Below are positions 9,582-55,626 of a DNA stretch of 64,000 bases, piece after piece; within the stretch, counting starts at the first letter, position 1; the number at the start of each line of letters is the position of its first letter. The translations under genes were made by a program, and so were the position numbers. The notes under the pieces were generated by a model, which was not told where the DNA came from, did not search any database, and worked only from the letters and a program-made list of their open reading frames with translations. Origin of the DNA: a virus (taxonomy: Duplodnaviria; Heunggongvirae; Uroviricota; Caudoviricetes); IMG/VR virus record IMGVR_UViG_3300027710_000010, positions 53,763-117,762 of that record; one strand, given 5' to 3'.

Positions 9582-9703
9582 TGGTGTCGCAGCCGGGATT
9601 CGAACCCGGATCTCTTCCTTGACATGGAATGTTGTAAGTTGCTGACTGTATCCTTAACAGGATAACCTTTATATAAGCGTCCTAACCATTAGACGACTGC
9701 GAC
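9582..9703 (-). tRNA. tRNA-Asp (GTC)-like gene with ~48-nt insertion between D-arm and anticodon stem (intron-containing or pseudogene)
   Basis: 3' half canonical (anticodon loop ATGTCAA, T-arm CCGGG-TTCGAAT-CCCGG, CCA); 5' acceptor GTCGCAG and D-arm found ~48 nt farther than expected; the insertion carries the AACAGGAT motif. Confidence 0.4.
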
Positions 9704-11924: not shown

Positions 11925-12008
11925 GGTGGAGTATCCTGGGATCGAACCAGGCGTGCCCGAAGGCGGCGGATTTACAGTCCACTGCATCACCATTGATGCT
12001 TCTACTCC
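11925..12008 (-). tRNA. tRNA-Tyr (GTA), type II
   Basis: 84 nt; anticodon arm GTGGA-CTGTAAA-TCCGC identical in loop to E. coli tRNA-Tyr; 3-bp D-stem, long variable arm; CCA. Confidence 0.75.
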
Positions 12009-14055: not shown

Positions 14056-14691
14056 ATGTTTGAACCCGGTATCGCAAGGGATATTTTCCCTATTAAGATT
14101 TACGAAGCAGAGTTTCCAAACTTTGAGACAATTCAGGAGCGTATACAGACTGCAATTATGCCCTACTTTGATAACCCAGCTTCGGGTAATGAATACGTTA
14201 GTGGTGACGGAACTGCTATGATTATTCGTACGGGTAATGACTTGCACAAAGATCCGTTGTTTAAAGAAGTCACAGAGTTTATCGAGTTTCATGGAAGAGA
14301 GTACTGGAAACAAATTGTCTACACAACACGAGTTGATCCTTATATACTACAAATGTGGGCTAATGATATACCCCCTGGTGGATTTACTCCTGCACACAAT
14401 CATAATCCTGTTCCTATCGGTGGCGCTTTTTATATCAACGCTACTCCAGACAAGGGTAATTTATATTTAGAAGATCCTTTAGAAATGGTTCATGGTAAAG
14501 CTCCGCGTGACTATATGCATAAGCCTTATCTATACACAGAAACAATTACAGTAAAGCCTGGTAAACTTGTTATGTTCCCAGGCTGGATGAGACATCATAC
14601 TAGAAGTAATATGACACAAGAAAATCGTTATGTGCTAGGTTTTAATATAGGTGCTTGGCTAAACTTTATGCCGAAACCCACTGGCCAGTAA
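14056..14691 (+). CDS. putative 2OG-Fe(II) oxygenase-fold protein (paralog A)
   Basis: Shares motifs HNH..GGAFYINA..NLYLEDP and MFPGWMRHHTRSN with the convergent paralog at 14666..15289. Confidence 0.5.
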   Translation: MFEPGIARDIFPIKIYEAEFPNFETIQERIQTAIMPYFDNPASGNEYVSGDGTAMIIRTGNDLHKDPLFKEVTEFIEFHGREYWKQIVYTTRVDPYILQMWANDIPPGGFTPAHNHNPVPIGGAFYINATPDKGNLYLEDPLEMVHGKAPRDYMHKPYLYTETITVKPGKLVMFPGWMRHHTRSNMTQENRYVLGFNIGAWLNFMPKPTGQ

Positions 14692-16365: not shown

Positions 16366-16944
16366 CTAGGTTATTCGTTTGATATCGTTCCAGTCTAAAT
16401 CAGACACGTCAACTAGAATGTCTTGAATTGCCAGTGTTGATTTAAATTCTAAGAGTGTATACATTAGCTTTGCTAGTTCAATAGGTTGCATTTTTTTAGA
16501 ATCAAATATCTTCGCCATATCAGTATCTACTAGACCAATAGTAAAATTCATAATATGAGGCCTTGCTTTAAAAATCCTATCATTAATTATTCTTGACTGT
16601 TCAGCTTTATCTTGAACATATTCTTCCATGTATGCGGGAACATTTTTTATTAGTATAGATTTACTATTAATATTAATTATAGTATTTGTAGTACCTTCCC
16701 ATAATTGTATAGTGTCCAATAACAACTGTTTTTGTGCATTCGGTGCGTAGGCGTTGTTTATAAAAACATCACATGTCTTTAGAACGTTATTAATATGCTT
16801 ACGTGTTGCTTCATCATTGATGTCGTGTCCGTTTGATCTACTGAATCCAAATACTGTATGTCCTTGTGCTGTAAAATATTCAGTTAGGGCTTTACCTATT
16901 CCATTAGTATGACCAGTAATTGCTATGTTCATAACGACTTCCAA
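16366..16944 (-). CDS. short-chain dehydrogenase/reductase (SDR) family protein
   Basis: N-terminal IAITGHTNGIGKAL matches the TGxxxGxG NAD(P)-binding motif. Confidence 0.6.
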   Translation of the reverse strand: MEVVMNIAITGHTNGIGKALTEYFTAQGHTVFGFSRSNGHDINDEATRKHINNVLKTCDVFINNAYAPNAQKQLLLDTIQLWEGTTNTIININSKSILIKNVPAYMEEYVQDKAEQSRIINDRIFKARPHIMNFTIGLVDTDMAKIFDSKKMQPIELAKLMYTLLEFKSTLAIQDILVDVSDLDWNDIKRIT

Positions 16945-18485
16945 TTTAATTTTTTTAAAATATATTCTTGAACTAATATATTGCTTTCTCTTGGATAATT
17001 TTCTAAGACGTTAATATCGTCATCCATCAACTGTTGTAGAGTCTTGTCACTGTAATATTCAAATGGCTTGTTATAAACTAATTCAAGATCTCCGACATTC
17101 CACATTACTGGACCGTAATTTGATGCATATCTATTCTTATAAAAATTAGCAACAATTTTCATAGTGTCCATGATATTCCATTCATCATTTTCCCAGCTTA
17201 TACCAGTATTCTCTATCAAACTCTCCCCTACACCATACTGTGTTGGTATCTGTTTAAATAGGTCCTTAATAGCTGGATACATATCAAAAGCAGTTTCTCG
17301 ATAGTTATATTTTTTCCAGTCAGTGGTTAATTTAGAAAAGTTATCCCCACCGTTTGGTTTAGGAATATACATTGGAAATAATATTAAATTTTCTGTTTTC
17401 CAGTTAGTCTCAAACCACGTTAATGATTTTTCTAGACTCTCTTTAGTTTCATAGGGTAACCCTGCAATTAAACTAACTTGCCCTTTGTATATACCATTCT
17501 TTTTAAAATAGTCCCTTGCTTCCAATAAACCAGGTAGTAGTTTATCAGGGTGCATACCTTTACCGATTGTTTTTAAACTTTCTGGGTTAGTTGATTCTAC
17601 ACCGTAGTGATGTCCTACAAATCCCATGTCTAACATAATATCCCAGTCTTGTTTTCGTGATACTAATAAGTCTGCCCTAGCAAATCCAAAGAATCTAGGT
17701 TTAAATGAAAGTTTTTTGATTGCAGTTTGAAACTTTTGCAATTTTTCTGTATAGTCGTTGACTGTTTCATCTGCAATAACATATCGTGTAACACCAAACC
17801 GATCATATGTGTCCTGCAATTCTTCTCGTAAATCTTCTGCGTCTCTACTGTGATCTTCCTTAACACCTAATACAGGAAAGTTACAAAAACTACAATTGAA
17901 TATACAACCACGACCAAACTCTACTACTAGAGTTTCATTAGCTAAAATAAAATCTCTATCCTCATAACATATTCTTAATTTTTTCATAGGAAAACTTGGA
18001 TAGTCGGTATTGCCTTTGATTACCCTTCTTCCATTTATTCCTAATTGATATTTTACTTTTTCACCACCAGTAATATGTTTGAGCAATGCTTCTATTGCTC
18101 GTTCTCCAAACCCATCTACATACCAATCTGCTTCAATACGATAGTTGTTGCTGATTTGTCCGCCTGCAATAATTTTTATATTAGGATACGTATCTCTTAC
18201 CCACTTAAAGTATAATTCTAATTTAGGCGACCAAATTGGAAAAGTACTACCGAACCCAATAAAAACAGTTTTGTTGCTAACTCTTGAGTTGGTAAATTCT
18301 TGTAACTGTTCTAAACTCCAGCCCATTACAAAGTCTAATACTTCTATGTCCCAATTTTGCTCTCTAAGATAAGTTGCGATCCTATGTGCTCCGCCTGTCC
18401 TCTTGTATACTGCGTGTACATTAGACAATGAACTAAAACCTGTTAAAATTAATCCGTGCATAGTTGTATTATAGTACGCCAGCAA
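16929..18485 (-). CDS. B12-binding-domain radical SAM enzyme
   Basis: CxxxCxxC motif GRGCIFNCSFCNFP mid-protein; ~180-aa N-terminal domain typical of cobalamin-binding class B radical SAM proteins; paralogous to 21144..22571. Confidence 0.7.
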   Translation of the reverse strand: MLAYYNTTMHGLILTGFSSLSNVHAVYKRTGGAHRIATYLREQNWDIEVLDFVMGWSLEQLQEFTNSRVSNKTVFIGFGSTFPIWSPKLELYFKWVRDTYPNIKIIAGGQISNNYRIEADWYVDGFGERAIEALLKHITGGEKVKYQLGINGRRVIKGNTDYPSFPMKKLRICYEDRDFILANETLVVEFGRGCIFNCSFCNFPVLGVKEDHSRDAEDLREELQDTYDRFGVTRYVIADETVNDYTEKLQKFQTAIKKLSFKPRFFGFARADLLVSRKQDWDIMLDMGFVGHHYGVESTNPESLKTIGKGMHPDKLLPGLLEARDYFKKNGIYKGQVSLIAGLPYETKESLEKSLTWFETNWKTENLILFPMYIPKPNGGDNFSKLTTDWKKYNYRETAFDMYPAIKDLFKQIPTQYGVGESLIENTGISWENDEWNIMDTMKIVANFYKNRYASNYGPVMWNVGDLELVYNKPFEYYSDKTLQQLMDDDINVLENYPRESNILVQEYILKKLNWKSL

Positions 18486-19140: not shown

Positions 19141-19992
19141 ATGAATCAGTCTTATACGTTAAGTCCTAGCAACTTCGAATTTGTGATTGAAGATCACTTT
19201 CCAAAATTGCCTAGCAATAAAAAGGTTGGGGTGTTTTTGTCTGGCGGAATGGAATCGAGTTTGATTAGTTTGATAGCCAGCAAGCATTATGGCAAAGATC
19301 GTGTTATCTTCTTTTATTCTGATAATATATTTTCCTCTAACGATCCTGCTAGAAACGTCTACATTCACACTAATATAAATCGAGCTGCCAAACTGCTTGA
19401 TATAACTCCCACTTACTTGGATTTTAATTATACTGCTCACGTTGATAATCGCAAACAATCTATACAGGATAAAATGCAAAGTTTAAAAACAGATTATGCT
19501 GTTGATTTTGTAATGTTTGGCTTTACTAAATTATTTTTCGACGTAGAAATTTTTAAACAGCAGGACATGACTATTGAAAAAATCAAAGAAATTGCCTACG
19601 CTGATCCTATTAAATACAAATCTACTATTGAAGAATTTCATTTAGACACTGGACGATATACTGAGCATTTATTAGACATAGATATTCCAGCCGAAGTATA
19701 CCCGTTGCTCAGGCAAACTTCAGGATTTATTAAGAGTCCTTTTAATCAGTTGAATAAAAGTGAAGTTGTTGACCTTTACAGGCAACTAGGATTACTAGAC
19801 AAGTTATACGGCACGAGCTCTTGTATTAGAGATAGTTTGACTGTTACTGGCAAGCATTGCGGTGCTTGTTTTAATTGTCAGCAAAGGTGGGATGCATTTA
19901 AAATATTGGGTGATATTGAAGACTTAACTGAGTACAATTCCGACAATATTAAACATTATAGAGAACAATTAGAACATGCTATTCATTCATAA
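19141..19992 (+). CDS. QueC-like PP-loop ATP pyrophosphatase
   Basis: SGGMES P-loop (SGGxDS family) and C-terminal Zn-site-like CGACFNC resembling QueC CGHCAAC. Confidence 0.6.
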   Translation: MNQSYTLSPSNFEFVIEDHFPKLPSNKKVGVFLSGGMESSLISLIASKHYGKDRVIFFYSDNIFSSNDPARNVYIHTNINRAAKLLDITPTYLDFNYTAHVDNRKQSIQDKMQSLKTDYAVDFVMFGFTKLFFDVEIFKQQDMTIEKIKEIAYADPIKYKSTIEEFHLDTGRYTEHLLDIDIPAEVYPLLRQTSGFIKSPFNQLNKSEVVDLYRQLGLLDKLYGTSSCIRDSLTVTGKHCGACFNCQQRWDAFKILGDIEDLTEYNSDNIKHYREQLEHAIHS

Positions 19993-21143: not shown

Positions 21144-22571
21144 ATGTCTGGAACTAACGTAATTTTTCTAACCTCAGTCATGACTCACTGGCTTGAAAGA
21201 AGTATTGGTGCATACCAACTTTCCAATTTTATAAAGAATCATGGTTACACAACTCAAGTGATAGATTTTATTCACTTACTGCCCAAAGATGTATTAATGA
21301 TGCTTCTTAAAAAATTTACTAGCGACAAAACTCAAGTATTAGCAGTGAGTACAACCTTTATATCTGAAGATGCCTATATCGGGGCTAACGCTATTAACAA
21401 GCAAAAGAAACCCGGAGTTATGTTTGAAAGTTTATCAACATGCTTAATAGAATATAAAAAACTTTTCCCCCATGTGAAAATAATTGCCGGAGGAGCTAAA
21501 GCAATGAGGTTTTATAATACTGGATTGTTTGACTACTGTTTTACAGGTTACGGTGAATTGGCATTACTAAACTTCTTAAAAGCAGGATCAAATAGGACTG
21601 GTAAAATTATTGAAGGCGATCTTTATCTTGCTAAATTTAAAGCTCATGAAATCGATCACAAATTTTCCGACAATGATGTTATTTTCTCCAACGAAACTTT
21701 GCCTATTGAAATAAGTCGAGGTTGTATATTTAAATGCAAATTTTGTGCGTATCCATTAAATGGCAAGAGTAAACTAGATCACGTTAGGGATACACACTTA
21801 ATAAGAGATGAGTTGATCAGCAATTATGAAAAGTGGGGGATCACAAATTATATCATAAGCGACGATACATTTAACGATAGTAATGATAAATTAAAAACTC
21901 TACATGATATGATTGTAGATCTGCCTTTTAAAATTAACTTTGTGTGTTATCTTCGTCTAGACTTACTTTATCATTTTAGGGATTCACAATTAGAGATGTT
22001 AGAAAACATGGGGTTAAAATCTTGTCACTTTGGTGTTGAAAGTTTTAATCCGACAACGGCAAAATTTATTGGTAAGGGCATGAGTGAAAATAAAACTAAA
22101 GATTTTTTATTATTTTTAAAAGATCGATGGAAGGATAAAATTAGTTTCATGTGTACGTTTATTACTGGGTTACCATTTGAAACAAAAGAAAGTTGTATAG
22201 AAACTGGTAAGTGGTGCAACGATAACAATATAACATTTTGGATGATGCCATTGTTTATAGATCCTGATAGAACATACAAAAGTGACATAGACATCAACTA
22301 TGAAAAATATGGATATAAGTTAGAGGATGACTTATCGTGGACTACTGAGTATATGACAATGGATGAGGCTATTCAAATTGCAAGTGAGTTTACTTCGGAT
22401 CCTAGTAAACACAAAATTTCTGCTTGGAATATGTTTGCATTACTATCACTAGGCGTATATACTGCTGACGAACTGTATCATTTATCTTATTCAGATTTAG
22501 ATAAAGATCAAGGCAGGACACTGATGCAGAAAAAGATGACTCAATATGTACAAAGGTTAATGACAGTGTGA
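21144..22571 (+). CDS. B12-binding-domain radical SAM enzyme (paralog)
   Basis: SRGCIFKCKFCAYP; overall co-linear with 16929..18485. Confidence 0.7.
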   Translation: MSGTNVIFLTSVMTHWLERSIGAYQLSNFIKNHGYTTQVIDFIHLLPKDVLMMLLKKFTSDKTQVLAVSTTFISEDAYIGANAINKQKKPGVMFESLSTCLIEYKKLFPHVKIIAGGAKAMRFYNTGLFDYCFTGYGELALLNFLKAGSNRTGKIIEGDLYLAKFKAHEIDHKFSDNDVIFSNETLPIEISRGCIFKCKFCAYPLNGKSKLDHVRDTHLIRDELISNYEKWGITNYIISDDTFNDSNDKLKTLHDMIVDLPFKINFVCYLRLDLLYHFRDSQLEMLENMGLKSCHFGVESFNPTTAKFIGKGMSENKTKDFLLFLKDRWKDKISFMCTFITGLPFETKESCIETGKWCNDNNITFWMMPLFIDPDRTYKSDIDINYEKYGYKLEDDLSWTTEYMTMDEAIQIASEFTSDPSKHKISAWNMFALLSLGVYTADELYHLSYSDLDKDQGRTLMQKKMTQYVQRLMTV

Positions 22572-37018: not shown

Positions 37019-37222
37019 TTATTTCTTAGTTTCGATTGAAGATTTAAACAGTAGGCCGCACAAGATCATTAGTCCCCATGCCTGCCACCATCCAATTGCA
37101 TTAACTCCGGTAACTGCACCAACAAGGCAATAGTTCCAAAGTAGCATTACTGGTAAACTGACTAGCAGTCCAAAACACACAATGAGGCCAACTGCTCCAA
37201 AAAGTGCAAAAAGGATTTTCAT
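37019..37222 (-). CDS. small membrane protein
   Basis: 67 aa, two hydrophobic helices. Confidence 0.45.
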   Translation of the reverse strand: MKILFALFGAVGLIVCFGLLVSLPVMLLWNYCLVGAVTGVNAIGWWQAWGLMILCGLLFKSSIETKK

Positions 37223-37293
37223 ATAATACTCTGTTTGTTTGTATGTGTTAATTATAGCAGAGGTAAACGATATTGTCTACCCCTGCGTACAAT

Positions 37294-38688
37294 TTATTTG
37301 CGAGCGTTTGCTCGAACTTGCTCAAATGTAATTTCCTTCACAAGTCGACCATCACGGTATACTTCTTCCAAAGCATCAGTCCATTCCATACCTTTGTCAG
37401 TCCAACCTTTTGGTTGGGTAACAGCAGATTGAAATTCACCTCCGCTTGTCCAAAGTGTCACACGGCCTGCTTTTGACTTCTTGCCCGAGTCAGTAATTGG
37501 ATCTTTCTGTACGTCTACCCATTTACCGTTAATTTCCGCACTCGAGCATTTCATAGCAAAACGCTGTGTATCACGATCCAGTTGTTGCAACAGAGCACCG
37601 CCCATACCAAACGCAATGTTATCAGCACTCCAACCGTATGCTTGGAAGCTACCAAGGATACAACGGATAGTGTGTTCGTTAACGCCGTCACCTTGGATAA
37701 GGCGAACGTTGTTCAATACACGGAAGCCTTTATCGTTGGTAGTGTATCCAAACTTGTCTCCTAGGATCTGTACAAGTTTTCTACAAACAATTTCAGGATC
37801 ACCAGAGTCTGGACGGATGACAACAGTAGCGCCACTATCAATAACTTTCTGGCGAAGTTCTTCTCCCCAAAGTTTTTCGGTAGCGTTGTAGATATCATAA
37901 CTATCGCTAACCACTGCAAGAATACTACCAGGCTTAGCAAATTGAGTAAGCATATTGTCATAGGCGTTTACTTCGTTGTCTCGACCCCAACTGGTAATAG
38001 TACTGTGCTCGGCTGCTGGAATACTAAAGCCAGCAATACCAGCAGAGTAATATTCGCGAGCAAAAAGAATGCCACTAATAGTATCTGTTCCCATAAAGTT
38101 AACGAGGTGACTAGCGCCGCCGATACCAGCACTCTCCATGCTAGACACACCCCGAGCGCCAAAGTCGTGCAGTTTAAAATCAATAGTACTAGGGTCACCT
38201 GTTTTCTCCAATGCGTCAAGAATGACTTGTTTAATTTTCCAGCTCTGTGTGGCTACAGTAACTGGATACCAAACTGCACGAAGCAGAGCAGTTTCCAACC
38301 AAGTAGTTAACCAGAACGCCTTAGGATCAGTATTTTCAATTGTTGCCAAAACATTGCTAACAGGGACCACTGTGCCTTCAGGAACACTCTTAATAACGAC
38401 AGGAAGGTAACCTCCGTGTGCTGATAGAATGTACTCCCATCCTTCTCGGTTGAAGGGCTCTCCGTGAGCAGTAAGGATCTCATCTGCAATATCAATGTCG
38501 GCTTGAGTAATTGGCTCAAGTAGGTATTCCTTAATAAATGCTTGGAGTCCAAACATCACAGTAGAATCGTAGCGACCGCCACGTGACTCAATGTAGGAGT
38601 AGACTCCTGTAGTACCTACTGGGTACTGTTTGAACATGCTCACTTTGTATGAGTCAGTATTCAAAATAAGATTTTTTGCGAGTTTCAT
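37294..38688 (-). CDS. nadV: nicotinamide phosphoribosyltransferase (NAMPT/NadV)
   Basis: 464 aa; N-terminal NTDSYKVSMFKQYP block and overall length characteristic of NAMPT. Confidence 0.8.
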   Translation of the reverse strand: MKLAKNLILNTDSYKVSMFKQYPVGTTGVYSYIESRGGRYDSTVMFGLQAFIKEYLLEPITQADIDIADEILTAHGEPFNREGWEYILSAHGGYLPVVIKSVPEGTVVPVSNVLATIENTDPKAFWLTTWLETALLRAVWYPVTVATQSWKIKQVILDALEKTGDPSTIDFKLHDFGARGVSSMESAGIGGASHLVNFMGTDTISGILFAREYYSAGIAGFSIPAAEHSTITSWGRDNEVNAYDNMLTQFAKPGSILAVVSDSYDIYNATEKLWGEELRQKVIDSGATVVIRPDSGDPEIVCRKLVQILGDKFGYTTNDKGFRVLNNVRLIQGDGVNEHTIRCILGSFQAYGWSADNIAFGMGGALLQQLDRDTQRFAMKCSSAEINGKWVDVQKDPITDSGKKSKAGRVTLWTSGGEFQSAVTQPKGWTDKGMEWTDALEEVYRDGRLVKEITFEQVRANARK

Positions 38689-38961: not shown

Positions 38962-39981
38962 TTATGCTCCTAAAAAGTGTTGGATAATTTCGTAATGATC
39001 TTCAAAACATTCTTCGCTCTTGACCTCAGCAATGGGAACCCAACGTGCTTTTTCTGCATCGTCGGAGCCTTTTACTTTGGGCAATTCGCCATCTGGCAAT
39101 TGAATAAAGAATGCGTGTGTAATAATGCGACCACGTGGACTACGGTCAATCGCATCAAATACCTTACTGCGTTGAATACTGCCGCGAAGTACTGGAGCTG
39201 GTACTTTGATTAGCGTTTCTTCACGCAATTCGCGGATCGCGGCATCTTCAACTGACTTGTCTGTGTTGGCGTTTACATATCCGCCTGGCAATGCCCACAA
39301 GCCCTTACCTGGTTCAGCACGGCGTTTGATAAGCAAGATGTGTCCGCTTTGGATCACAACTGCATCAGCTGTACTGAATATTGGAGGATAAGGCAAACTT
39401 GCGTATTGCTTCTTGTAGTTGATAACAAACTCGCGTTCGCGGATGATCTGTTCGTACTCTGCTGTTTCTTTGAACTTCATTAGGAAGTCAAAGGTAGATT
39501 CTGGAACAACGCCTTTGATAAAGCTCATATTGACATCACGCTTGAAGAACAAGTCTCGAATGTTAACGGCACTTAAAAACTCAATAAGCTCTACGTTTTC
39601 AAATCCCCATTGTGGGAACATATCTAAGTAGAATGAACTGTCATCTTTCTTGTGACCGATGATGCCAACCTTGTCGCCGGGCTTAGTGTGTTTGGCAACT
39701 AGTGCCTGTACACGAACTGCCCATGCTTGGTCGTTGTAAATTGTATCTGGATTTTCTTCAACGCTGATTAGCATTGAAAGTCCGCCTGCCGCATACTTAA
39801 TCATCTGTGCTCGTTCAGCACTTGTAAACGGGTTTTTGTAAGTGCGGGGTTGTGCGGCACTACCTGTAATAATCACCAGCTGTTCACAAAGTGCTGTGGC
39901 ACGTTTGATAATCTCTAAGTGAGCATTATGTATGGGTTGGAAGCGTCCAATAAGGACTAGGGTATCGTATTTTCTAGACAT
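38962..39981 (-). CDS. nadM: bifunctional NMN adenylyltransferase / Nudix ADP-ribose pyrophosphatase (NadM-Nudix, NatV-like)
   Basis: N-terminal LVLIGRFQPIHNAH (HxGH nucleotidyltransferase) plus C-terminal Nudix box AAIRELREETLI. Confidence 0.8.
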   Translation of the reverse strand: MSRKYDTLVLIGRFQPIHNAHLEIIKRATALCEQLVIITGSAAQPRTYKNPFTSAERAQMIKYAAGGLSMLISVEENPDTIYNDQAWAVRVQALVAKHTKPGDKVGIIGHKKDDSSFYLDMFPQWGFENVELIEFLSAVNIRDLFFKRDVNMSFIKGVVPESTFDFLMKFKETAEYEQIIREREFVINYKKQYASLPYPPIFSTADAVVIQSGHILLIKRRAEPGKGLWALPGGYVNANTDKSVEDAAIRELREETLIKVPAPVLRGSIQRSKVFDAIDRSPRGRIITHAFFIQLPDGELPKVKGSDDAEKARWVPIAEVKSEECFEDHYEIIQHFLGA

Positions 39982-40616: not shown

Positions 40617-41339
40617 TTAGTTAAACGATTTGGTTACTGACACTACAAAAGTATCTTTGTAAAGACGTTGACCATTTATTGTATTAGCAGATTGGAATGT
40701 GCTTCCTTGATTGCTGTTTGTGTAATACTTACCAGCAATATTCCAACCTTGCAAGTCATATGCAACACCGACATTGTAGTCTGTATAGTTCAATGATGAG
40801 CTGTTTTCAACTAGTGTGCGGCCAACATGACCAACTGCCGACAATTTGCCAACTAGTGGAATTGTTGCGTCTGCCTGTAGGTAGTTAGAACCTTTACTGT
40901 TAGCAGTACCAAAGTAGTTGCTTAATGATTGACTAGCTTTAACACTAACCAACTCTTTGTAACCTACACCAACGTACAATTCGTTCGTGTCAAAGTTATT
41001 ACCACCTGTGGTAGTTGTAGCACGTGGATAGAAATAATTCATAGTACCAACGTCGATTGTAACGCCTTTATAAACTTCTTTCTTAAAGCCAGCGTATACA
41101 TCTGACTCAACGCCTGCGCCATTTGTATACATTTGACTTGAAACAGAACTGTTCCAGTTACCGACGTATAGCCCACTTGAGTGTGCGTAATCAATACCGC
41201 CTTGTACTGCTGGAGCATTTTGGGTTTGACTTACGCCACGGAAACGGTAGTCGGAGGTCAAGCCCAAATTGCCTGTAACCTGTGCTTGGGCAACAGAGAT
41301 ACCTGCTACCATCATCAATGCTAAAAATAGCTTTTTCAT
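40617..41339 (-). CDS. outer-membrane beta-barrel protein (TIGR02001-like)
   Basis: Signal peptide ending AQA; TSDYRFRGVSQT N-terminal block; alternating amphipathic strands; C-terminal F. Confidence 0.55.
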   Translation of the reverse strand: MKKLFLALMMVAGISVAQAQVTGNLGLTSDYRFRGVSQTQNAPAVQGGIDYAHSSGLYVGNWNSSVSSQMYTNGAGVESDVYAGFKKEVYKGVTIDVGTMNYFYPRATTTTGGNNFDTNELYVGVGYKELVSVKASQSLSNYFGTANSKGSNYLQADATIPLVGKLSAVGHVGRTLVENSSSLNYTDYNVGVAYDLQGWNIAGKYYTNSNQGSTFQSANTINGQRLYKDTFVVSVTKSFN

Positions 41340-41424
41340 ATTTGTATTTCCTTTTAATAAAGTGACTGTACGTCACTTGTACATTATATAGTATTGTTGA
41401 TTCTAGAGCAAGATTTTTATAGTC

Positions 41425-41450
41425 AAAAGAAACCCGCCGAAGCGGGTCCT
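41425..41450 (-). terminator. rho-independent terminator at 3' end of tmRNA coding piece
   Basis: GGACCCGC-ttcg-GCGGGTTTCTTTT on minus strand. Confidence 0.7.
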
Positions 41451-41850
41451 ACTATTTTGGATGACACGGTATAGTTACCGCGCAAGGGCTGTTTTTTAGG
41501 CAGCTAATTCGAAACGCTCAGCGTTTGCGGCGCGAGCCACAGAAGCTGGAACTTCGAAAAACTTGAAAGTAGATGTTTTTGCATTTACTAGATTTTGCTT
41601 GATTTAGAGTCATCGCCTACTCAGTTGCCGTCTTCAATATCTCACCCTGTCGAAACCATGGCAGGCCCATTAGTAAGTATGCTAACCGGTATACAAAGCC
41701 TTCTGTACACCACGGAGGAATAAATTCCTGCTTATCCGTTAAACTGTCGCTAACATACTTGCTGGTGGACCTGGCGGGAGTCGAACCCGCGTCCAAGATG
41801 CCTTTTCTCTAAAGGAATTACAACTATACCGCTATTATACGGCATAATAT
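41430..41850 (-). ncRNA. ssrA: tmRNA (ssrA), apparently circularly permuted two-piece form; tag reading frame 41531..41496 encodes (A)ANAERFELAA-stop
   Basis: Minus strand contains a tRNA-like acceptor/T-arm ending ...GCGGG-TTCGACT-CCCGC-CAGGTCC-A-CCA at 41763-41790. About 110 nt downstream lies a 5' acceptor strand GGGCCUGCCAUGGUUUCGACAGGG resembling the E. coli tmRNA 5' end, then GCC GCA AAC GCT GAG CGT TTC GAA TTA GCT GCC TAA, then a terminator. Confidence 0.7.
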
Positions 41851-41914
41851 TTATCCTGTCAAACTTTTTGGTTGTTAAAGCAATAAATACATACATAACA
41901 TTGGGAGCGAATCA

Positions 41915-42196
41915 ATGGGTGATATTTTTAAAATTATTGGCGACTTAGGTATGCCAGTAGCGGCAGCACTAGCAGGTGGGTACTTCGTGTACCTTACTAT
42001 CAAATTGTTATTACAAGGAGTACTTGGTTCAATCAAAGGTATGGCCGGTATTATCACAGCACTAGATAACCGTGTCAAAACCATGAACCACGACGTTGTA
42101 CGTATTGATACTATCGTATCGAATGCATTAGGGTTGCGCCCAGATGTAGAGCGAATTGCTCGTGCTGATGGTAAGAATGATGCAAGAAGGGATTAA
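41915..42196 (+). CDS. small membrane protein
   Basis: 93 aa, hydrophobic N-terminal half; first gene of a plus-strand block. Confidence 0.45.
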   Translation: MGDIFKIIGDLGMPVAAALAGGYFVYLTIKLLLQGVLGSIKGMAGIITALDNRVKTMNHDVVRIDTIVSNALGLRPDVERIARADGKNDARRD

Positions 42197-42838: not shown

Positions 42839-43552
42839 ATGGATAAAATCATAGCAACGTTAGTGATGACGCACATCACAATAGTATGTGTAACATTATA
42901 CTTACACAGAAGTCAAGCACACAGGGGCATTGAGTTTCATCCCGTAATAAGTCACTTCATGAGACTTTGGTTATGGATGACTACAGGGATGACTACCAAG
43001 CAATGGGTAGCTATACATCGTAAGCATCATCAAAATACAGATGTAGAAGGTGATCCGCATAGTCCGCATGTGTTCGGAATTTGGCAACTAGTTTTTGGTG
43101 GTGTTAAATTTTATAATCTAGCAGGTAAAGATGCACACATGGTTATGAAATACGGCATGGGCACACCTAAAGACTGGATTGAACGCAAACTTTATACACC
43201 CCACCATCGCCTTGGCATTCTCTTAATGCTAGTCATAGACTTATTGTTCTTTGGGCCTTGGGGATTTTTAGTGTGGGGTGTTCAAATGATATGGATACCA
43301 TTCTGGGCCGCAGGATTTATTAACGGCATCGGACACTGGTGGGGTTATCGCAATGGCGAAACTAAGGACCGCAGTCACAACGTCAGTCCTTGGGGAATTT
43401 TAATTGGTGGAGAAGAACTACATAACAATCATCACCTAGATCCTGCTAACCCTAAACTAAGTCGTCGCTGGTTTGAGTTTGATATTGGCTGGATGTGGTT
43501 TAAGATTTTTGAATTGCTAAAGTTAGCTAAACTTAGAAACTCTTCGCAATAA
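42839..43552 (+). CDS. membrane fatty-acid desaturase family protein
   Basis: Histidine boxes HRKHH and HNNHH with hydrophobic spans. Confidence 0.7.
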   Translation: MDKIIATLVMTHITIVCVTLYLHRSQAHRGIEFHPVISHFMRLWLWMTTGMTTKQWVAIHRKHHQNTDVEGDPHSPHVFGIWQLVFGGVKFYNLAGKDAHMVMKYGMGTPKDWIERKLYTPHHRLGILLMLVIDLLFFGPWGFLVWGVQMIWIPFWAAGFINGIGHWWGYRNGETKDRSHNVSPWGILIGGEELHNNHHLDPANPKLSRRWFEFDIGWMWFKIFELLKLAKLRNSSQ

Positions 43553-44282
43553 ACTCTGCTTCGGGGATACGGGTATGTGTATTTTTACTACCTAACACAA
43601 CAACAATACGTCTTCCTATTTCAGTATCTAGCATCATAACAATACAACCTCCACTGGCTCTTATGTAGCCAGTTTTGCTGACTATGAAGTTATGACGTTT
43701 GCCAATAATAGGATTTGTGTTATTAAAAATAAACCACTGTTTCTTTAGTTTAATTTTAACTTGGCTTGTTTTACTAGTTTCAACAATTTCTGGATACTTT
43801 GCTGACTCTAAAACAATTTTAATTAATTCTTCAGCTGTGCTGACATTCATTACACTGAGTCCAGTTGGGTCTATATACTTTGTTTTTGTTAGCCCAAGTT
43901 GTTTGGCTTTTGCGTTCATAGCACGTATACATTCAACAGTTCCGCCGGGGTAATGCTCGCAAAGCATTAGAGAGGCGGTGTTATCGCTTTTAACCATTGC
44001 CAACTGTATTAGTTCTTTGCGTGTGTATGGTTTGATAAAATCATTTAAATCTTGATTTGCATCTAATACAACCATAACAGTCATCAATTTAGTAATACTG
44101 GCAATGCTACGCTGTTGCTCAGTATTTTCGCCTTGTATTATTTTGCCGTCGGCACTTGCCACCAACCACGATGTTGCTGTAATTGGCACAGGTTTGGCAT
44201 TGGAGGCGTTTGCTTGCCCAACATATAAAAGGGCAAAAAATGCCAATAGATATAAGATTCTATACATTTGTCTAGTATACAC
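43533..44282 (-). CDS. D-alanyl-D-alanine carboxypeptidase/endopeptidase (peptidase S11)
   Basis: Signal peptide; SITKLMT (SxxK), SDN and C-terminal KTG-like block. Confidence 0.7.
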   Translation of the reverse strand: MYTRQMYRILYLLAFFALLYVGQANASNAKPVPITATSWLVASADGKIIQGENTEQQRSIASITKLMTVMVVLDANQDLNDFIKPYTRKELIQLAMVKSDNTASLMLCEHYPGGTVECIRAMNAKAKQLGLTKTKYIDPTGLSVMNVSTAEELIKIVLESAKYPEIVETSKTSQVKIKLKKQWFIFNNTNPIIGKRHNFIVSKTGYIRASGGCIVMMLDTEIGRRIVVVLGSKNTHTRIPEAEFIAKSF

Positions 44283-44303: not shown

Positions 44304-46358
44304 TTATTTTTCGTGTGCAACAAATTCACCGTTCCAGTTGTCGCCCAAATCTTGGTGTTTCATAAACTCGCAACGTTCAATCCAAATCTTATAGTACTTG
44401 TCCATTTGTCCGCCAAAGTTACCCTTTAGCTTTTTACACATAGCGGCAGCTTCGTCAAACTTTTTAGCTTTGTATAAGTCATGCATTACTTCGTGTGCTA
44501 TCTTATCTCTAGTGTAATCAACACCACGAGTACGTAACACAGTATAAATTAAGTCTGCTACTGTCTTGCCTTTTGGTTGCAAGTTGTCTAGCAACAAGTA
44601 GAAGAAATCATCTTTAGTTCTGTTGTATGTTTCTGCCCCAACAATGGCCAATACACCGTACGCTTTACAACGTGCTTCTAAACGTGCCGCAGTACTAACC
44701 ATGTCACCTAGAATGTCATAGCTGTGACGTTCTGTTGAACCCATCTCACCGATAAAGCCAATACCTGTGTTACAACCCCAACCCATTGCGGCTGGCGGTA
44801 AACCTTGTGCTTCCATTAGCTTGGTATATTCGTCTACAGCATCCAACATTTCTAATCCTACCTTAACGATAGTACGAGCATGATTAGGATCTTCAATAGG
44901 AGCACCGTGTATGTGCATTGACGCATCACCTACATACTTGATAACCATGCCCTTGTTATCTAACATTGGCTGACTGATAGCATCCATGTATCCGTTCATG
45001 TACTTGCCTAGCCCAGCGACGTCATCTCCATAGTGTTCGCCAATTGGTGTAAAGCCACGTAGGTCACTAAACATAACACTTACGTCTTTTCGCACACCAC
45101 GCTTGATTAAGTCTGGATCTTTTTGTAACAGCTCTACTACTTCTTTTGAACAGTATCCAGCAAACTGTTTCTTAATAGCTTGCTTCTGTAAGAACTCGCT
45201 TACAAACTTAACGCCATAAGTATGCAGAGCGACAAGAATAAGACCAAACGAGATTGCTGTCGCGTCTGATAAGATGAGCCAGCTATTGAAAGCGTACATA
45301 GTACCAGGAATGATGGCACCAACAATAACCACAGTAGCACAAATGCCAACATAAGTCCACCTCGATAAGAAAATTAATAAAATGCCAAATGCTAGTAATG
45401 CTAAAACTTCAACTCCCTCGGCATAGTCGGGACGTTGTATAACTACTCCATTAACCATTGTGCCTATTGCGGCTGCTTGTACATCCTGTGGCCATACAGC
45501 GCCCTTGCTTGTTGGCACTGGATTGGCAATACCTGCGGCTGTTGGTCCTACGATAACAATAGCGCCCCCAAAATCTTTAGGTAGCTCCATTAGACTTACC
45601 TGTTTATTTTCTTGGCTCCAGTCAATCCATACACGACCCAACGCATCAGTAGTAATTGGACCAAATTTAGGAATTCGCATTTTTTCAACACCACCAGCGA
45701 ATAGCTTAATCTGTGTTGTTGAATCTCCTGCTACTACACGAAGTGTCTCCATAGCAAGGCTTGGATAGATATCTCCGTTAACTGTAATGACTAATGGTAG
45801 TCGGCGATTAACACCGTCAATTTCTTCTTTAGTATGAGTTGTGCCAACTCCTATGGCATTATTTTCCAACATTGGCACATTGGCAATTAGACCACCGTAC
45901 GGAGTAATGCTGTCTACAAATTCTGAATTGATAACTGCTGTTCCAGGCTTGCGTGGACTGTTCTTAGTTTTACCCTCGTAAGGTGTTGATGAAAGAACTA
46001 CAGGATATTGTTTTAGGGCATTTGCGAGAACAGCATCGCCACCAGTACGATCAGACTCAGCCATGATAACATTGAGCACAACAAGCCCAGCGCCACGATC
46101 GTACAAATCTTTAATAATCTTAGCATACTCTGCCCTCGGTAATGGCCATTGGCCATACTTATCTAAACTAGCTTCGTCTATGTTAACTGTATAGATATTA
46201 TTTTCTGTAGGTGCTTTGCTAGTAATTAGTGTATCAAAATAACGTAGCCTTACACTTTCAACAAATGTAGGATCTGCAACACGTATGCTCAATACTAACG
46301 CTAGTGTTAGTAGTGCAGTCCAAGGGCTTAACAATGTTTTCTTAAATTCTATTTTCAT
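44304..46358 (-). CDS. CHASE2 sensor domain-containing adenylate/guanylate cyclase
   Basis: N-terminal TM plus periplasmic CHASE2-like domain, 3 TM helices, class III cyclase core (FSDLRGFT). Confidence 0.7.
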   Translation of the reverse strand: MKIEFKKTLLSPWTALLTLALVLSIRVADPTFVESVRLRYFDTLITSKAPTENNIYTVNIDEASLDKYGQWPLPRAEYAKIIKDLYDRGAGLVVLNVIMAESDRTGGDAVLANALKQYPVVLSSTPYEGKTKNSPRKPGTAVINSEFVDSITPYGGLIANVPMLENNAIGVGTTHTKEEIDGVNRRLPLVITVNGDIYPSLAMETLRVVAGDSTTQIKLFAGGVEKMRIPKFGPITTDALGRVWIDWSQENKQVSLMELPKDFGGAIVIVGPTAAGIANPVPTSKGAVWPQDVQAAAIGTMVNGVVIQRPDYAEGVEVLALLAFGILLIFLSRWTYVGICATVVIVGAIIPGTMYAFNSWLILSDATAISFGLILVALHTYGVKFVSEFLQKQAIKKQFAGYCSKEVVELLQKDPDLIKRGVRKDVSVMFSDLRGFTPIGEHYGDDVAGLGKYMNGYMDAISQPMLDNKGMVIKYVGDASMHIHGAPIEDPNHARTIVKVGLEMLDAVDEYTKLMEAQGLPPAAMGWGCNTGIGFIGEMGSTERHSYDILGDMVSTAARLEARCKAYGVLAIVGAETYNRTKDDFFYLLLDNLQPKGKTVADLIYTVLRTRGVDYTRDKIAHEVMHDLYKAKKFDEAAAMCKKLKGNFGGQMDKYYKIWIERCEFMKHQDLGDNWNGEFVAHEK

Positions 46359-46822
46359 GATGGTCTTCTTACCTCTACATCGTGCAGGGAACCGTCTTCT
46401 TGTGTCCAATTTGGCAACAGCTTACTAAAAATTCGACCATATACTCCTGATCTACCACTAGACCCTTGTATATCATATTCTATCACTCGAATTTTGTCGT
46501 TGTATTTTACTATAAAATCTTTTATTATATCAGTGATTGCTGATATAACTTGTGCCGCATTACCAGTTCCGAGCATGTTAACTTTTCCGTTGCCGGTGAA
46601 ACTGATCTCCCAATAACCGCTGTAGTCGACTTCTTCGTTTTCGGCGTCGTCATCATAACCTATTTCATCGCGGTCCGCATCTACGTGATCGTATTCTGAA
46701 TTGCTGGCCCTGAAGTCGTACTCCACACCACCCACAAAAAATTCAGCGTTGGCGTAGCGTTCTCCGCGTGAGGTCCATTTCCACGGAACTGAAGTCGCCG
46801 CCATTATTTCGTCGATTCTCAT
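46355..46822 (-). CDS. hypothetical acidic protein
   Basis: 155 aa. Confidence 0.45.
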   Translation of the reverse strand: MRIDEIMAATSVPWKWTSRGERYANAEFFVGGVEYDFRASNSEYDHVDADRDEIGYDDDAENEEVDYSGYWEISFTGNGKVNMLGTGNAAQVISAITDIIKDFIVKYNDKIRVIEYDIQGSSGRSGVYGRIFSKLLPNWTQEDGSLHDVEVRRPS

Positions 46823-50010: not shown

Positions 50011-51108
50011 TTAATTTTGAGTGATAGTAATCATACTAGTCGCTCCTTTGTTTATGTTTTGTATAATAGTCTGACCATCTTGAATAATTGTTAGTGTAGC
50101 ACTCCTATTCGTGTCAAATGTCACTGTTGCATTGTGACTCGCTGCCTTATACAATGTTACCTGACTAGCATCATCATTATAATAATACATCAACCCTAGG
50201 GGCTTATTGTAACTGTATCCGGGTAGTATTGGGTCGTCTAATTCATTTGATAGAAATGATCTATTTTGTTTGTCCAAATCACTTTCTGTGTAAAATTCTA
50301 ATAGATCAGCGTTTAAATCATTTCGATCTAATGCTTTATTATCATCAAGTTTGTTTTCTTCTAGTCCATTAAATTTCAATAGATCAATATTCAGTTCGTT
50401 AAAATCTAACCCAGCACGATCTCGTTTAGTGTTGACACTATCGTCATTTACTTCTGGCGGTTTGCTAACAATTAACAAGTTATTAATGTTGGCTTGATCT
50501 ATTTTAACCACTGCAGGCTCGCTTGGTCGGGTATACGCACTATTAACTAATGTTGCTTGGTACGGCACGTCCAATAACACTATTCCGGCTAATGTGCTAA
50601 CTTCAATAGCGCCAGTGACACATGCGCCTTTGTCATCACAACTAGGCAATAGCATGACAAGACTTCGACCTAACTCGTCTACAGTCATACTAAAATCAGT
50701 GCCCCGTACTGCGATAGTTGCTGTTGGAGTTTTTATTGCGACTTGTTGAGGATTGTTTTTAGCAATCTGACCACTAGCATAACGAGCAGTACCCAGCGCC
50801 ATATTAATAGCTAACTTGCCTGTACCTTTTTTTGGGTCATAGACAAAATCATCAATAATCAACTTACTCTGTTCTGTAATTTTAACAGTAGTTGCATCAT
50901 CAAAAGTAATTGTTGCCTTAGCCTTTGCTGTGCTAATAGCATCGTTCATTTCTACGCCCGTGTTGATGCTCGAGGATAAACTTTTCTTATCTCGTACGAT
51001 CTCTGTTGGGCCCGACTGCTCAGTAACCTTGCCCACACCTGCAAACCCGTTAATCGGTTTGAGTAACAGAAATATTATTATTAGAGCCGTTACTGTTGAT
51101 AGATGCAT
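50011..51108 (-). CDS. FecR-domain protein
   Basis: N-terminal TM; AIKTPTATIAVRGTDFSMTV block typical of the FecR domain. Confidence 0.5.
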   Translation of the reverse strand: MHLSTVTALIIIFLLLKPINGFAGVGKVTEQSGPTEIVRDKKSLSSSINTGVEMNDAISTAKAKATITFDDATTVKITEQSKLIIDDFVYDPKKGTGKLAINMALGTARYASGQIAKNNPQQVAIKTPTATIAVRGTDFSMTVDELGRSLVMLLPSCDDKGACVTGAIEVSTLAGIVLLDVPYQATLVNSAYTRPSEPAVVKIDQANINNLLIVSKPPEVNDDSVNTKRDRAGLDFNELNIDLLKFNGLEENKLDDNKALDRNDLNADLLEFYTESDLDKQNRSFLSNELDDPILPGYSYNKPLGLMYYYNDDASQVTLYKAASHNATVTFDTNRSATLTIIQDGQTIIQNINKGATSMITITQN

Positions 51109-51703
51109 TCTTAGCCATGCCGCCAGTTTGTAATAATGTAACCAAATTTGGTGTACCTGGAGTTCCACCACCTGCTACTGTGATATCAGCTGTATGCATA
51201 CCTGCACCGCTTGTAGTATGCGATACGTTATTATTACTACCTGCAATATTGATAACACTAGACAACACATTACCGGCTAACATCTGCGTGACATTATTAT
51301 TGTTACCAGTTACATTATTAGTAATAGTATCAGCAATACATGTTTCGCATTTGATAAGTTGGTTGTTTCCAGACCCGTCAGCTGACACGTTAACAATAGT
51401 TCCTGTACCTTTAGTCATGCTGTCCAGCACTAAACTAAGAGTGTTGCTTGCACCAATTTGAGTTACCGTAACGACGTTGAAGTCGCCTTTAATCATTGCC
51501 GGAGTTGTTGAACTTGTTTTTGCAACGTCTCCGTTGACTAGGTTTCCTGCGCCCGTTTGTGTTATACTTACAGTAGCATTATCGCCCACCTGTTCTACGT
51601 ACACATCATTGGCCCATGCTCCCGATGACAACATTCCAGTTGCCATTAGTATTGCGAATACTTTTCTCGACAATCCGCCACCGCCTTTTATTCTTTTAAT
51701 CAT
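51050..51703 (-). CDS. curlin-repeat-like secreted protein
   Basis: Signal peptide then imperfect repeats (ATVSITQTGAGN, NVVTVTQIGASN, NISVTQTD) resembling CsgA/CsgB repeats. Confidence 0.5.
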   Translation of the reverse strand: MIKRIKGGGGLSRKVFAILMATGMLSSGAWANDVYVEQVGDNATVSITQTGAGNLVNGDVAKTSSTTPAMIKGDFNVVTVTQIGASNTLSLVLDSMTKGTGTIVNVSADGSGNNQLIKCETCIADTITNNVTGNNNNVTQMLAGNVLSSVINIAGSNNNVSHTTSGAGMHTADITVAGGGTPGTPNLVTLLQTGGMAKNASINSNGSNNNISVTQTD

Positions 51704-51743: not shown

Positions 51744-52562
51744 TTAGTTTACTTCTTGATCTATTAAAGGTGCCACCTTTTTAAATCTCCAAATACCCTT
51801 CTTCTCGCCTTGTATTATCATATCATATACTGCCTGTTCGATAGCTACTCGAACAGCATATGTTGTTGGTTCATTTAATGCCATACCATTTTCTAATTCT
51901 AATGCTTTAGTTCCCGCATCCACAAACCTTAATACACCAACGTTGTGCTGTGTGCTGTAAATAGTTTTACTCACAGCGTTCGACAGTAGGATCTCTCCAC
52001 TATTCACGCTTATCAGTCTCAAACTAATCACAACTTCATCAACACGGTACTGCTGACTTCCACCGATGCCTAAAAATCTAGCACCGTTACCTCCACTGCG
52101 AATATTGCTGTCATAGCCAATAATCCCACCTTCAATCATTATACCTGCCACTGTCATTGGTTTAAGTTGCTTCGCATCCTTACCTTCGTATACTTCACGT
52201 TGGTTACGGATCAACTGTCGTTCTTTAATAAGATTATCTAATCCTACACGCTCTACTACTTTAAACCAATTCTTACTGTCCTGCAAGCTCTTGATTAAGA
52301 ATACTTCAGACCCCTGTGTTACTGCTTTACTAAACAATGCTAACTTGTCGTTTGGCTTCATTTGTCCAGTTTTATCTTGGAATCCGTAAACTGCAATAGT
52401 CATCGGAGGCCCATCCAAATCTGGTATCACCTCAGTTAAGCTCTGTCGCGGTTTTAACACTACAGGCCCCTCTTTTTTCGCCATGTCCATATGTACTGCG
52501 GCGCATCCGGAGAGCATTATTGTAAAAAATATTGCTAGTATAAGTCTCATATTAGAATGCAA
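51744..52562 (-). CDS. csgG: CsgG-family secretion channel lipoprotein
   Basis: Lipobox LSGC; TIAVYGFQDKTGQ, IMIEGGIIGYDSN, GGNGARFLGIGGS blocks align with E. coli CsgG. Confidence 0.8.
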   Translation of the reverse strand: MHSNMRLILAIFFTIMLSGCAAVHMDMAKKEGPVVLKPRQSLTEVIPDLDGPPMTIAVYGFQDKTGQMKPNDKLALFSKAVTQGSEVFLIKSLQDSKNWFKVVERVGLDNLIKERQLIRNQREVYEGKDAKQLKPMTVAGIMIEGGIIGYDSNIRSGGNGARFLGIGGSQQYRVDEVVISLRLISVNSGEILLSNAVSKTIYSTQHNVGVLRFVDAGTKALELENGMALNEPTTYAVRVAIEQAVYDMIIQGEKKGIWRFKKVAPLIDQEVN

Positions 52563-54942: not shown

Positions 54943-55626
54943 TTAGTGTATTTCAGGGAACAAGCAATCCTGAATGAACACTGCTACATCGTCGTCGTTT
55001 AGCCCTAAACTGGACATGACTTTAGGAGTATGCGGGTTTTGTTTTTGATTCTGTGCGTAGTAATTCTGTGCATCTTTGGTATTGACCGCTTGACCTTTAG
55101 ATTCGTCTACACATTCCAAATAATGATTTATTACAATGTGTGCCAATGATTCAAGTTGCTTTAGTTCGTCACCATCACTAACATTACCTGCGGCAATCAT
55201 TCCTGGACTAAAGATACGTTCTGCCCAATCTGGAAGTTTACGTTTCTTGTTCCATTCATACCTTTCAGCTTCTTCACCAAAGTATTGGATCATTGGATGA
55301 TTAGCATCACCTGCAGGACTATAGTCAATAAAGCATCCAGTAATTTTGTTTCTACCTGCTACTACATCAAAACCAAAGATAGGAGCAGGATTATCTAAAT
55401 GCGGGAAAATGCAACAATGCATCATCCATAATCCCTTAGTCTCACGAGCATCTACAACATCAATGTGTGCTCGGCGATATCGACTGCTGGCCCAAACTTT
55501 GTTGACCCAGCCAGGTTGATTGAATCGATCCATACCAGGTTCATGAATTATACTGCCAGTTGCATAAAACTGTGACTCAAAATATTGCTCAATTTTAATT
55601 AGCGTGTCCCAAACATTACTCTCCAT
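54943..55626 (-). CDS. ferredoxin-dependent bilin reductase (PcyA/PebS-like)
   Basis: HIDVVDARETKGLWMMHCCIFPH block typical of the FDBR family; adjacent to heme oxygenase. Confidence 0.65.
   Translation of the reverse strand: MESNVWDTLIKIEQYFESQFYATGSIIHEPGMDRFNQPGWVNKVWASSRYRRAHIDVVDARETKGLWMMHCCIFPHLDNPAPIFGFDVVAGRNKITGCFIDYSPAGDANHPMIQYFGEEAERYEWNKKRKLPDWAERIFSPGMIAAGNVSDGDELKQLESLAHIVINHYLECVDESKGQAVNTKDAQNYYAQNQKQNPHTPKVMSSLGLNDDDVAVFIQDCLFPEIH

Follow-up and report, generated by a model that had tools for sequence, protein, structure and literature searches.

Anatomy of the Gene

The window analyzed here is a stretch of 64,000 nucleotides of a large phage of freshwater type, from the Caudoviricetes record IMGVR_UViG_3300027710_000010 (positions 53,763 to 117,762), and its minus strand carries a transfer-messenger RNA (tmRNA, ssrA) gene in circularly permuted order, in which the T-arm, the 3′ strand of the acceptor stem and the CCA end lie upstream of the acceptor 5′ strand and the open reading frame (ORF) of the tag, all on one strand. 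The single tmRNA reported by ARAGORN in the window is of the permuted kind (tmRNA*, 41405..41855, minus strand), and two Rfam 15 models match over their full length and well past what chance would give, RF04321 tmRNA_permuted with 122.8 bits (E = 1.7e-23; threshold, 47; positions 1–213 of the model) and RF01850 beta_tmRNA with 104 bits (E = 1.4e-30; threshold, 84; positions 1–331 of 331). RF01850 is the top scorer of clan CL00001 on the tmRNA stretch, with three weaker matches of the same clan suppressed. The first-pass annotation, made from the letters of the DNA, had proposed a permuted two-piece tmRNA gene in a phage genome, and ARAGORN, Rfam and the covariation between the pieces described below all agree with it; the sequence elements that it listed are likewise all on the minus strand where it had placed them. 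It had also named the alphaproteobacterial and cyanobacterial types, and here it needs correction, as the Rfam search did return a significant permuted tmRNA but with the betaproteobacterial RF01850 as the best subtype. A permissive Rfam search of 41300–42000 gave no further credible family and no riboswitch in or beside the tmRNA gene, the matches to YrlA, isrK and PCA3_2 being dismissed as far under their thresholds (E-values 0.3–0.9).

A standard one-piece tmRNA with an overlooked 3′ tRNA-like end has a negligible probability of being the correct description of this locus. ARAGORN and Rfam give permuted models only, and a pattern search for the T-arm/acceptor/CCA 25-mer, with up to 3 mismatches allowed, finds a single copy in the 64 kb, which means that no downstream 3′ tRNA-like end was overlooked and that the T-arm and CCA are indeed missing downstream of the tag, as had been claimed. 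The 155 nt from the stop codon to the next gene hold hairpins and a terminator only, and the one-piece reading is already refuted by ARAGORN, Rfam and the T-arm/CCA search.

The gene has its own sigma-70 promoter at 41834..41862 that agrees with the consensus at 12 of 12 positions (TTGACA 41862..41857, a 17-nt spacer and TATAAT 41839..41834; all coordinates in this section refer to the minus strand). Transcription is predicted to start at ~41827–41825, on the base with which the RNA modelled by Rfam, and with it the acceptor piece, begins, and the RF01850 alignment extends over the promoter region. An equally placed promoter, in which the −10 element ends 39 nt before GGAC, is found in six relatives (L006, L090, L104, L111, L119, and L120). 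Many other relatives (L004, L011, L017, L021, L099, L101, and L121) lack the promoter that the window and L006, L090, L104, L119, and L120 have; the acceptor piece of these promoterless genes starts ~10 nt past the stop of a conserved ORF (...QGMKGxQASNIQPA*), so that it is probably co-transcribed with that ORF and would need 5′ processing.

The acceptor piece of ~63 nt (41763..41825), as delimited by the Rfam alignment, the sequence and pair counts, contains in order the 5′ strand of the outer P2 helix (AGUUG, 41825..41821), a local hairpin (CCUUU/AAAGG, 41815..41801), the 5′ strand of P2a (CAUCUU, 41800..41795), the T-arm (GCGGG-UUCGACU-CCCGC, 41790..41774), the acceptor 3′ strand (CAGGUCC, 41773..41767), the discriminator A (41766) and the encoded CCA (41765..41763). 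It is followed by an intervening sequence that is predicted to be removed on maturation and that measures 94 nt (41669..41762) rather than the ~110 nt first estimated between CCA and GGG. This spacer is closed by a 12-bp stem, AAGUAUGUUAGC / GUUAGCAUACUU, with two inner hairpins, which brings the CCA 3′ end beside the GGG 5′ end, and its fold (−31.4 kcal/mol, z = −4.41) was equalled in stability by 0 of 200 shuffles. The length of the spacer varies widely among relatives, mostly within ~50–270 nt, as expected for a discarded spacer.

The coding piece of ~240 nt (41425..41668) is defined by the sequence, Rfam and pair counts, with its 3′ end predicted from the terminator. It opens 94 nt past the CCA with the tmRNA 5′ end GGGCCUGCCAUGGUUUCGACAGGG (starting at 41668), the first part of which is the acceptor 5′ strand GGGCCUG (41668..41662) that pairs with CAGGUCC, and the third acceptor pair is a G:U (G3:U70), the alanine identity element. 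There follow a D-loop-like GGUUUCGAC (41657..41649), the 3′ strand of P2a (AGGGUG, 41648..41643), the 3′ strand of the outer helix (CAACU, 41627..41623) and a hairpin in the PK1 region (GAGU/ACUC, 41622..41607). The tag ORF comes next, and a 3′ hairpin and terminator close the piece, the intrinsic terminator GGACCCGC-UUCG-GCGGGUUU with its U-rich tract (41449..41430) also aligning to the 3′ hairpin of RF01850.

Pairing of the Acceptor and Coding Pieces

Relatives of the gene were collected by scanning IMG/VR with the 32-nt T-arm/acceptor pattern, an exact copy of which was found in at least 120 contigs. The working set consisted of these loci, the gene of the cultured Xanthomonas jumbo phage XacN1 and that of the window, and ARAGORN calls a complete permuted tmRNA in 93 of its sequences, 84 of them unique. 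Since MAFFT misaligned the 5′ P2 region when all types of tRNA-like domain were aligned together, two narrower alignments were used, an anchor-trimmed one of 28 distinct tRNA-like-domain sequences (A2) and a gap-free one (A3) limited to 18 relatives whose tRNA-like domain is of the same type as that of the window.

In alignment A2, 99.8% of the cells of the proposed pairs are standard pairs, compared with 34–58% when the partners are slid by 1–3 columns, and the observed covariation score was reached by none of 500 shuffles. Compensatory changes occur at four of the six pairs of P2a, one of which is seen as UA, CG, GC, and AU, and the G:U at acceptor position 3:70 is invariant (28/28 sequences). 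In alignment A3, pairing over the full two-piece fold reaches 98.1%, and 10 pairs covary. Of the helices that join the pieces, the outer helix and the acceptor stem are both fully paired (100%) and P2a is paired at 99%; the acceptor stem of XacN1 has a C:G swapped to G:C. The first-pass annotation had named a lack of covariation between the pieces as grounds for abandoning its reading. Such covariation is present, with the three inter-piece helices 99–100% paired and compensatory changes at seven of their pairs. Co-folding by minimum free energy also recovered the T-arm, the acceptor stem, the hairpin and the terminator. The covariation in these alignments supports the joining of the two pieces by the acceptor stem with G3:U70, by P2a and by the outer P2 helix.

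Length of the Tag

The reading frame of the tag is preceded by the resume context GUAAAU (41588..41583, giving GUAAAU|GCA at 41588..41580), and ARAGORN calls as the tag an ORF of 28 codons, GCA...GCC (41582..41499), that encodes AKTSTFKFFEVPASVARAANAERFELAA and ends ...FELAA-UAA (GAA UUA GCU GCC UAA, with the stop at 41498..41496). The tag ANAERFELAA of the first-pass annotation, started at 41531, is in frame but makes up just the last 10 of these 28 residues. It corresponds to an alternative to be weighed, which is that translation resumes at GCC 41531 or GCA 41528 to give (A)ANAERFELAA while the upstream 17 codons stay untranslated. The last 11 codons do look like a canonical tag in full (AANxxxFxLAA), RF01850 aligns its tag consensus to them after an insertion of 66 nt, and ARAGORN picked a shorter internal start in two relatives (L106 and L002).

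Several lines of evidence favor the longer tag. RF04321 places UAAAUGCA at the resume site of the model, and GCA 41582 is preceded by U at −5 and A at −4, neither of which is found at the internal site. In E. coli, U85 and A86 are the main determinants of the choice of frame on tmRNA (PMC2481249), and the match of U(−5) and A(−4) to these two bases favors resumption at GCA 41582. Among genes that share this type of tRNA-like domain with the window, GUAAAU|GCN lies at a constant 84–86 nt from the 5′ end of the coding piece, and the tags that follow have 10, 12, 23, 27, 28, or 31 residues. A frame-blind search for the resume context and for the GCN-GCN-stop motif at the end of the tag gave a distance divisible by three in all 49 unique genes that have both, over 11 distinct lengths from 33 to 105 nt. 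Moreover, in the best-sampled subgroup the substitutions within the extension number 9, 6, and 20 at the three codon positions, and among the alternative codons 15 are synonymous; the window and its closest relative (L053) differ at nine codons, six of them synonymously. The short tag is hence improbable, although of the alternatives considered here it retains the largest share, and the tag is most likely the 28 residues that begin at GCA 41582. Prediction of tags in this group should therefore rely on GUAAAU|GCN, because a canonical-looking internal start is probably the wrong one.

The long tags have the appearance of an N-terminal module (A-N/K-A/T-x-T-F-D/E/K-F/Y...) placed before a full canonical tag, and tags of 21–33 residues are present in ~33 of the 74 unique coding sequences of this sample. 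Near-identical long tags (ANADTFDFSAMSFTGN...) are carried on two different P2/acceptor-piece sequences, that of L101 and that of L121, L019, L040, L056, and others, which suggests recombination between the tRNA-like and mRNA-like modules. No paper describing extended phage tags was found in the literature covered, itself a partial sample. The added module might be translated and have a function of its own, and an adaptor site or a site for a second protease would be a guess.

Location Within a Phage Genome

That the gene belongs to a phage is evident from what accompanies it. ARAGORN finds 37 tRNA genes in one array in the window, which also has rIIA and rIIB, with best cultured matches in T4-like phages (35–37% identity), together with auxiliary genes that include a CsgG homologue and genes of NAD salvage. 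A 6.7-kb segment with the tmRNA in it is 100% identical in JGI contig 3300009419 (59 kb) and ENA assembly ERZ27245771, and such identity between independent assemblies shows that the tmRNA gene is not an artefact; the Logan contig SRR5818248 (1.1 kb) adds the neighboring gene and identity over the 201 tmRNA bases that it covers. The neighboring gene is also found on a contig of 299,582 bp, and rIIA, an AAA ATPase and NMNAT are likewise near the tmRNA on related viral contigs, several of which are 200–380 kb long.

The first-pass annotation had left room for the gene to mark a host/prophage junction. An origin of this kind, in which a host tmRNA lies beside an integrated phage or an attP remnant is left behind, would fit with the common use of tmRNA genes as integration sites (PMC4383910; PMC12595487) and with the many host-like metabolic genes in the window. 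The gene, however, is complete with its own promoter and terminator, and both of its flanks hold phage-typical genes or genes shared, in several cases syntenically, with related phage contigs. No att-like duplicate of the tmRNA 3′ end was found anywhere in the 64 kb in a 25-mer search with up to 3 mismatches. In addition, a permuted tmRNA with the window's 32-nt sequence was not seen among genomes of 185,579 bacterial and archaeal species, and the cultured phage XacN1 has the same type of gene. A 2025 PNAS paper on jumbo phages and tmRNA deals with islands that integrate beside the host tmRNA and is not relevant to the gene of the window. We consider the junction excluded, the probability left to it being minute, and place the tmRNA within the phage genome on the basis of the tRNAs, rIIA/rIIB, synteny, the ~300-kb contig and the lack of an att repeat.

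Occurrence and Descent

The gene type is already known in phages, and it is the length of the tag, 28 residues rather than the usual 10, that is unusual. Lists of phage tmRNAs go back to phage G and to mycobacteriophages of the Bxz1 type (PMC4131195), a tmRNA and sometimes SmpB as well are present in huge phages (PMC7162821), and the 2025 tmRNA database, from which the RF04321 model that finds the window's gene easily is taken, lists 79 phage sequences (PMC11915505). A tmRNA was found in 402 of 18,146 phage genomes, the share of phage genomes that have one being given as about 2.3%, and ARAGORN classed 53 of the 133 unique genes as two-piece (PMC9004378). The suggestion of the first-pass annotation that a permuted phage tmRNA is especially rare does not survive these numbers, nor the presence of the same type in XacN1 and in at least 120 IMG/VR contigs.

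The bacterial and archaeal scan with the 32-mer covered one genome for each of the 185,579 species and gave 34 matches, at 33 of which ARAGORN calls a standard one-piece tmRNA and at one of which (L137) it makes no call. The one-piece matches are in unrelated phyla, including Lachnospiraceae, Saprospiraceae and others, and the sole permuted call, in L155, coincides in part with a standard one-piece gene and seems to be spurious. Hence no permuted gene on this exact 32-mer was found in the 185,579 species genomes, in a scan that single-base variants would escape, and within the collections searched the combination of the exact tRNA-like domain with the permuted layout occurs only in viral sequence. 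A megablast search of GenBank phages with the 20 kb around the gene gave no match, and blastn of the tmRNA gene against GenBank phages gave short matches to the tRNA-like domain only, the useful one being XacN1.

The full-length match to the betaproteobacterial model and the ANDxxFALAA tags of relatives suggest common descent with that type, and descent from the betaproteobacterial lineage appears likely as judged from these sequence features. As a tentative extension, in which we have distinctly less than even confidence, the genes of XacN1 and of large, often jumbo, aquatic phages may form a beta-type lineage of the phages' own rather than a recent copy from any sequenced bacterium, within which the subclade of the window would have evolved functional two-part tags of 21–33 residues with an AANxxxFxLAA degron.

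Proposed Function

We propose, with high confidence, that the window encodes a functional, phage-borne, circularly permuted ssrA gene of betaproteobacterial-type architecture. A two-piece tmRNA was reportedly described in Caulobacter by Keiler and coworkers in 2000, and the features of the window's gene that would suit processing into two RNAs are its encoded CCA, a geometry like that of RNase P substrates, and a structured spacer that differs in length among relatives. Host RNase P would cut at G41668 and 3′ trimming would expose the encoded CCA, yielding a base-paired RNA of ~63 nt plus ~240 nt. The host alanyl-tRNA synthetase (AlaRS) would then charge this RNA with alanine through G3:U70, and host SmpB and EF-Tu would bring it to ribosomes stalled on broken or non-stop mRNAs. 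Translation would resume at GCA 41582 and add the 28-residue tag with its ClpXP/ClpAP-type degron LAA, through which the tagged nascent chain would be degraded. Alongside the 37 tRNA genes, the tmRNA would probably serve to keep host ribosomes in circulation and to clear truncated proteins during the degradation of host mRNA that accompanies infection, and a benefit from ribosome recycling fits with proposals made for other large phages (PMC7162821; PMC9004378). No SmpB gene was found in the window, and XacN1 was not among the phage records that match a verified E. coli SmpB query, from which we infer that the tmRNA must use the SmpB of the host.

Some observations weigh against this proposal. 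P2a is absent from the minimum-free-energy co-fold of the two pieces, so that this helix rests on covariation, and the support in the PK1 region is for a covarying hairpin, with the pseudoknot itself putative. The RF01850 score is just 20 bits over the threshold, making the gene a divergent member of that family, and in the more diverged subgroup to which the window belongs the substitutions in the tag extension (20, 15, and 20 at the three codon positions) give no clear third-position excess. Mature ends, alanylation and tag addition are predictions from the biology of other tmRNAs, and compatibility with the SmpB of the host is assumed.

The gene might instead be a decaying relic, or a decoy that titrates host SmpB and blocks host trans-translation. 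Such a decoy would have a parallel in the tRNA-like-domain-only RNA of mycobacteriophage DS6A, which has been proposed to inhibit the host system (PMC4131195; PMC11915505), and the failure to find a phage SmpB in the window or in XacN1 would agree with this reading. The family as a whole, however, conserves the entire mRNA-like part with an open, in-phase tag frame that ends in an LAA-type degron, and the compensatory changes in the helices indicate selection on the full structure. A decoy would moreover have no need of a conserved tag ORF, and we regard both the relic and the decoy as very unlikely relative to a working tmRNA.

With a functional gene, the window would represent one more well-supported large phage with a ribosome-rescue RNA of its own and a near-complete set of tRNAs, which fits the picture of big phages that keep translation going after host shutdown. 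The gene type is abundant in IMG/VR and easily found with ARAGORN or RF04321, and the tmRNA of XacN1 is unannotated in GenBank. If the extended tags are translated and functional, they would offer a tractable case of a phage altering a protein-quality-control signal of its host, in which the added module may send tagged proteins to another fate than the tmRNA of the host would. The cultured member of the family, XacN1, has a tag of only 12 residues.

Other Genes in the Window

Host-like genes surround the tmRNA. On one side are NAMPT (37294–38688), an NMNAT-Nudix fusion (38962–39981) and a Gcw_chp outer-membrane protein (40617–41339), and on the other a fatty-acid desaturase (42839–43552), an S11 D-Ala-D-Ala peptidase (43533–44282) and a CHASE2-nucleotide cyclase (44304–46409). 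The Gcw_chp gene has many metagenomic homologues with 70–86% identity, and the one whose context was examined (P0044, 75%) has a similar phage-like neighborhood. Farther along, the minus strand encodes a CsgG curli-pore homologue (51744–52562, Pfam 7.8e-54) and, ~0.6 kb from it, a FecR-domain protein (50011–51171, phrog_37870), with an uncharacterised ORF of 217 amino acids between the two (51050–51703), as well as a ferredoxin-dependent bilin reductase (54943–55626).

The plus strand carries a 2OG-Fe(II) oxygenase (14056–14691) and a QueC-like protein (19141–19992). Two radical-SAM ORFs, of 518 amino acids (16929–18485, minus strand) and 475 amino acids (21144–22571, plus strand), are on opposite strands and have their domain at the identical residues 188–357. 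Two tRNAs on the minus strand were found by Rfam and not by ARAGORN, at 9585–9703 and 11927–12008, and the first, given its length of 119 nt, may hold an intron or a large insertion. A 468-residue protein with DUF2828 and DUF7788 (1389–2795, minus strand), encoded ~2 kb away from where the tRNA array ends, matches phrog_850, annotated as an RNA-binding protein (5e-142).

Comparison With Known Systems

The closest bacterial counterpart is the two-piece tmRNA reportedly described in betaproteobacteria by Sharkady and Williams in 2004. The betaproteobacterial type represented by RF01850 has the same order of promoter, acceptor piece, CCA, spacer, coding piece and terminator, and it shares with the window G3:U70, the GGUUUCGAC analogue of the D-loop and the UAAAU|GCN resume context, while tags of its ANDxxFALAA kind are present in many relatives of the window's gene. 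Unlike that type, the gene of the window is phage-borne and scores 104 against the threshold of 84; its spacer has 94 nt compared to a few tens of nt in the RF01850 consensus, the middle P2 helix of RF01850 is replaced by the local hairpin of the acceptor piece, and the 28-residue tag sets it apart. In length, this tag is like the ssrA tags of Mycoplasma, which are reportedly of 27 amino acids and degraded by Lon according to work of Gur and Sauer in 2008, so that both are of ~27–28 residues rather than the usual 10. The Mycoplasma tags, however, replaced the ClpX degron, whereas that of the window keeps the canonical ...LAA end and adds an N-terminal module, and the two have no sequence similarity.

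Among cultured phages, XacN1 (AP018399) has by ARAGORN the same permuted type, unannotated in its record (37201..37621), near tRNA genes of its 385-kb genome, with the tag ANANTFDYALAA. Its Rfam scores are near those of the window (RF04321, 123.2 bits; RF01850, 107.8 bits), and it has the window's layout of P2 and hairpin with compensatory differences. The two genes differ in the tag, of 12 amino acids in XacN1, and in its spacer of 114 nt, and blastn finds similarity over a stretch of just 73 nt at 78% identity. The host of XacN1, Xanthomonas, is a gammaproteobacterium and thus outside the three lineages from which two-piece tmRNA has been reported (PMC9004378). As a separate observation, XacN1 (L001 in our set) has a GOLLD RNA (227 bits) ~1 kb downstream of the tmRNA, and XacN1 and five large related viral contigs (L005, L022, L049, L063, and L078) have an amber-suppressor-type tRNA(CUA) at a distance of a few kb, and at most ~10 kb, from the tmRNA (the positions concerned in L001 are 4350–4763 and 1827–1985); neither tRNA(CUA) nor GOLLD RNA was found in the window.

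The OM43 phage Melnitz and the pelagimyophages are T4-like large phages in which a complete permuted ssrA lies near an early-type promoter, and their genomes also contain CsgG curli-pore genes (PMC9004378), the window having its CsgG homologue at 51744–52562. The two-piece Melnitz gene, for which a detailed description exists, was reported to be of the alphaproteobacterial type with a glutamine riboswitch (PMC9004378), whereas the gene of the window has no riboswitch in or beside it. Similarly, the Bxz1-group mycobacteriophages and Bacillus phage G have tmRNAs, many tRNAs and a presumed dependence on host SmpB, but their tmRNAs are standard one-piece molecules (PMC4131195), unlike the permuted gene of the window. 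What distinguishes the gene of the window from the cases described is hence its beta-type layout in a phage, a tRNA-like-domain sequence that in our searches is combined with that layout in viruses only, and its extended tag.

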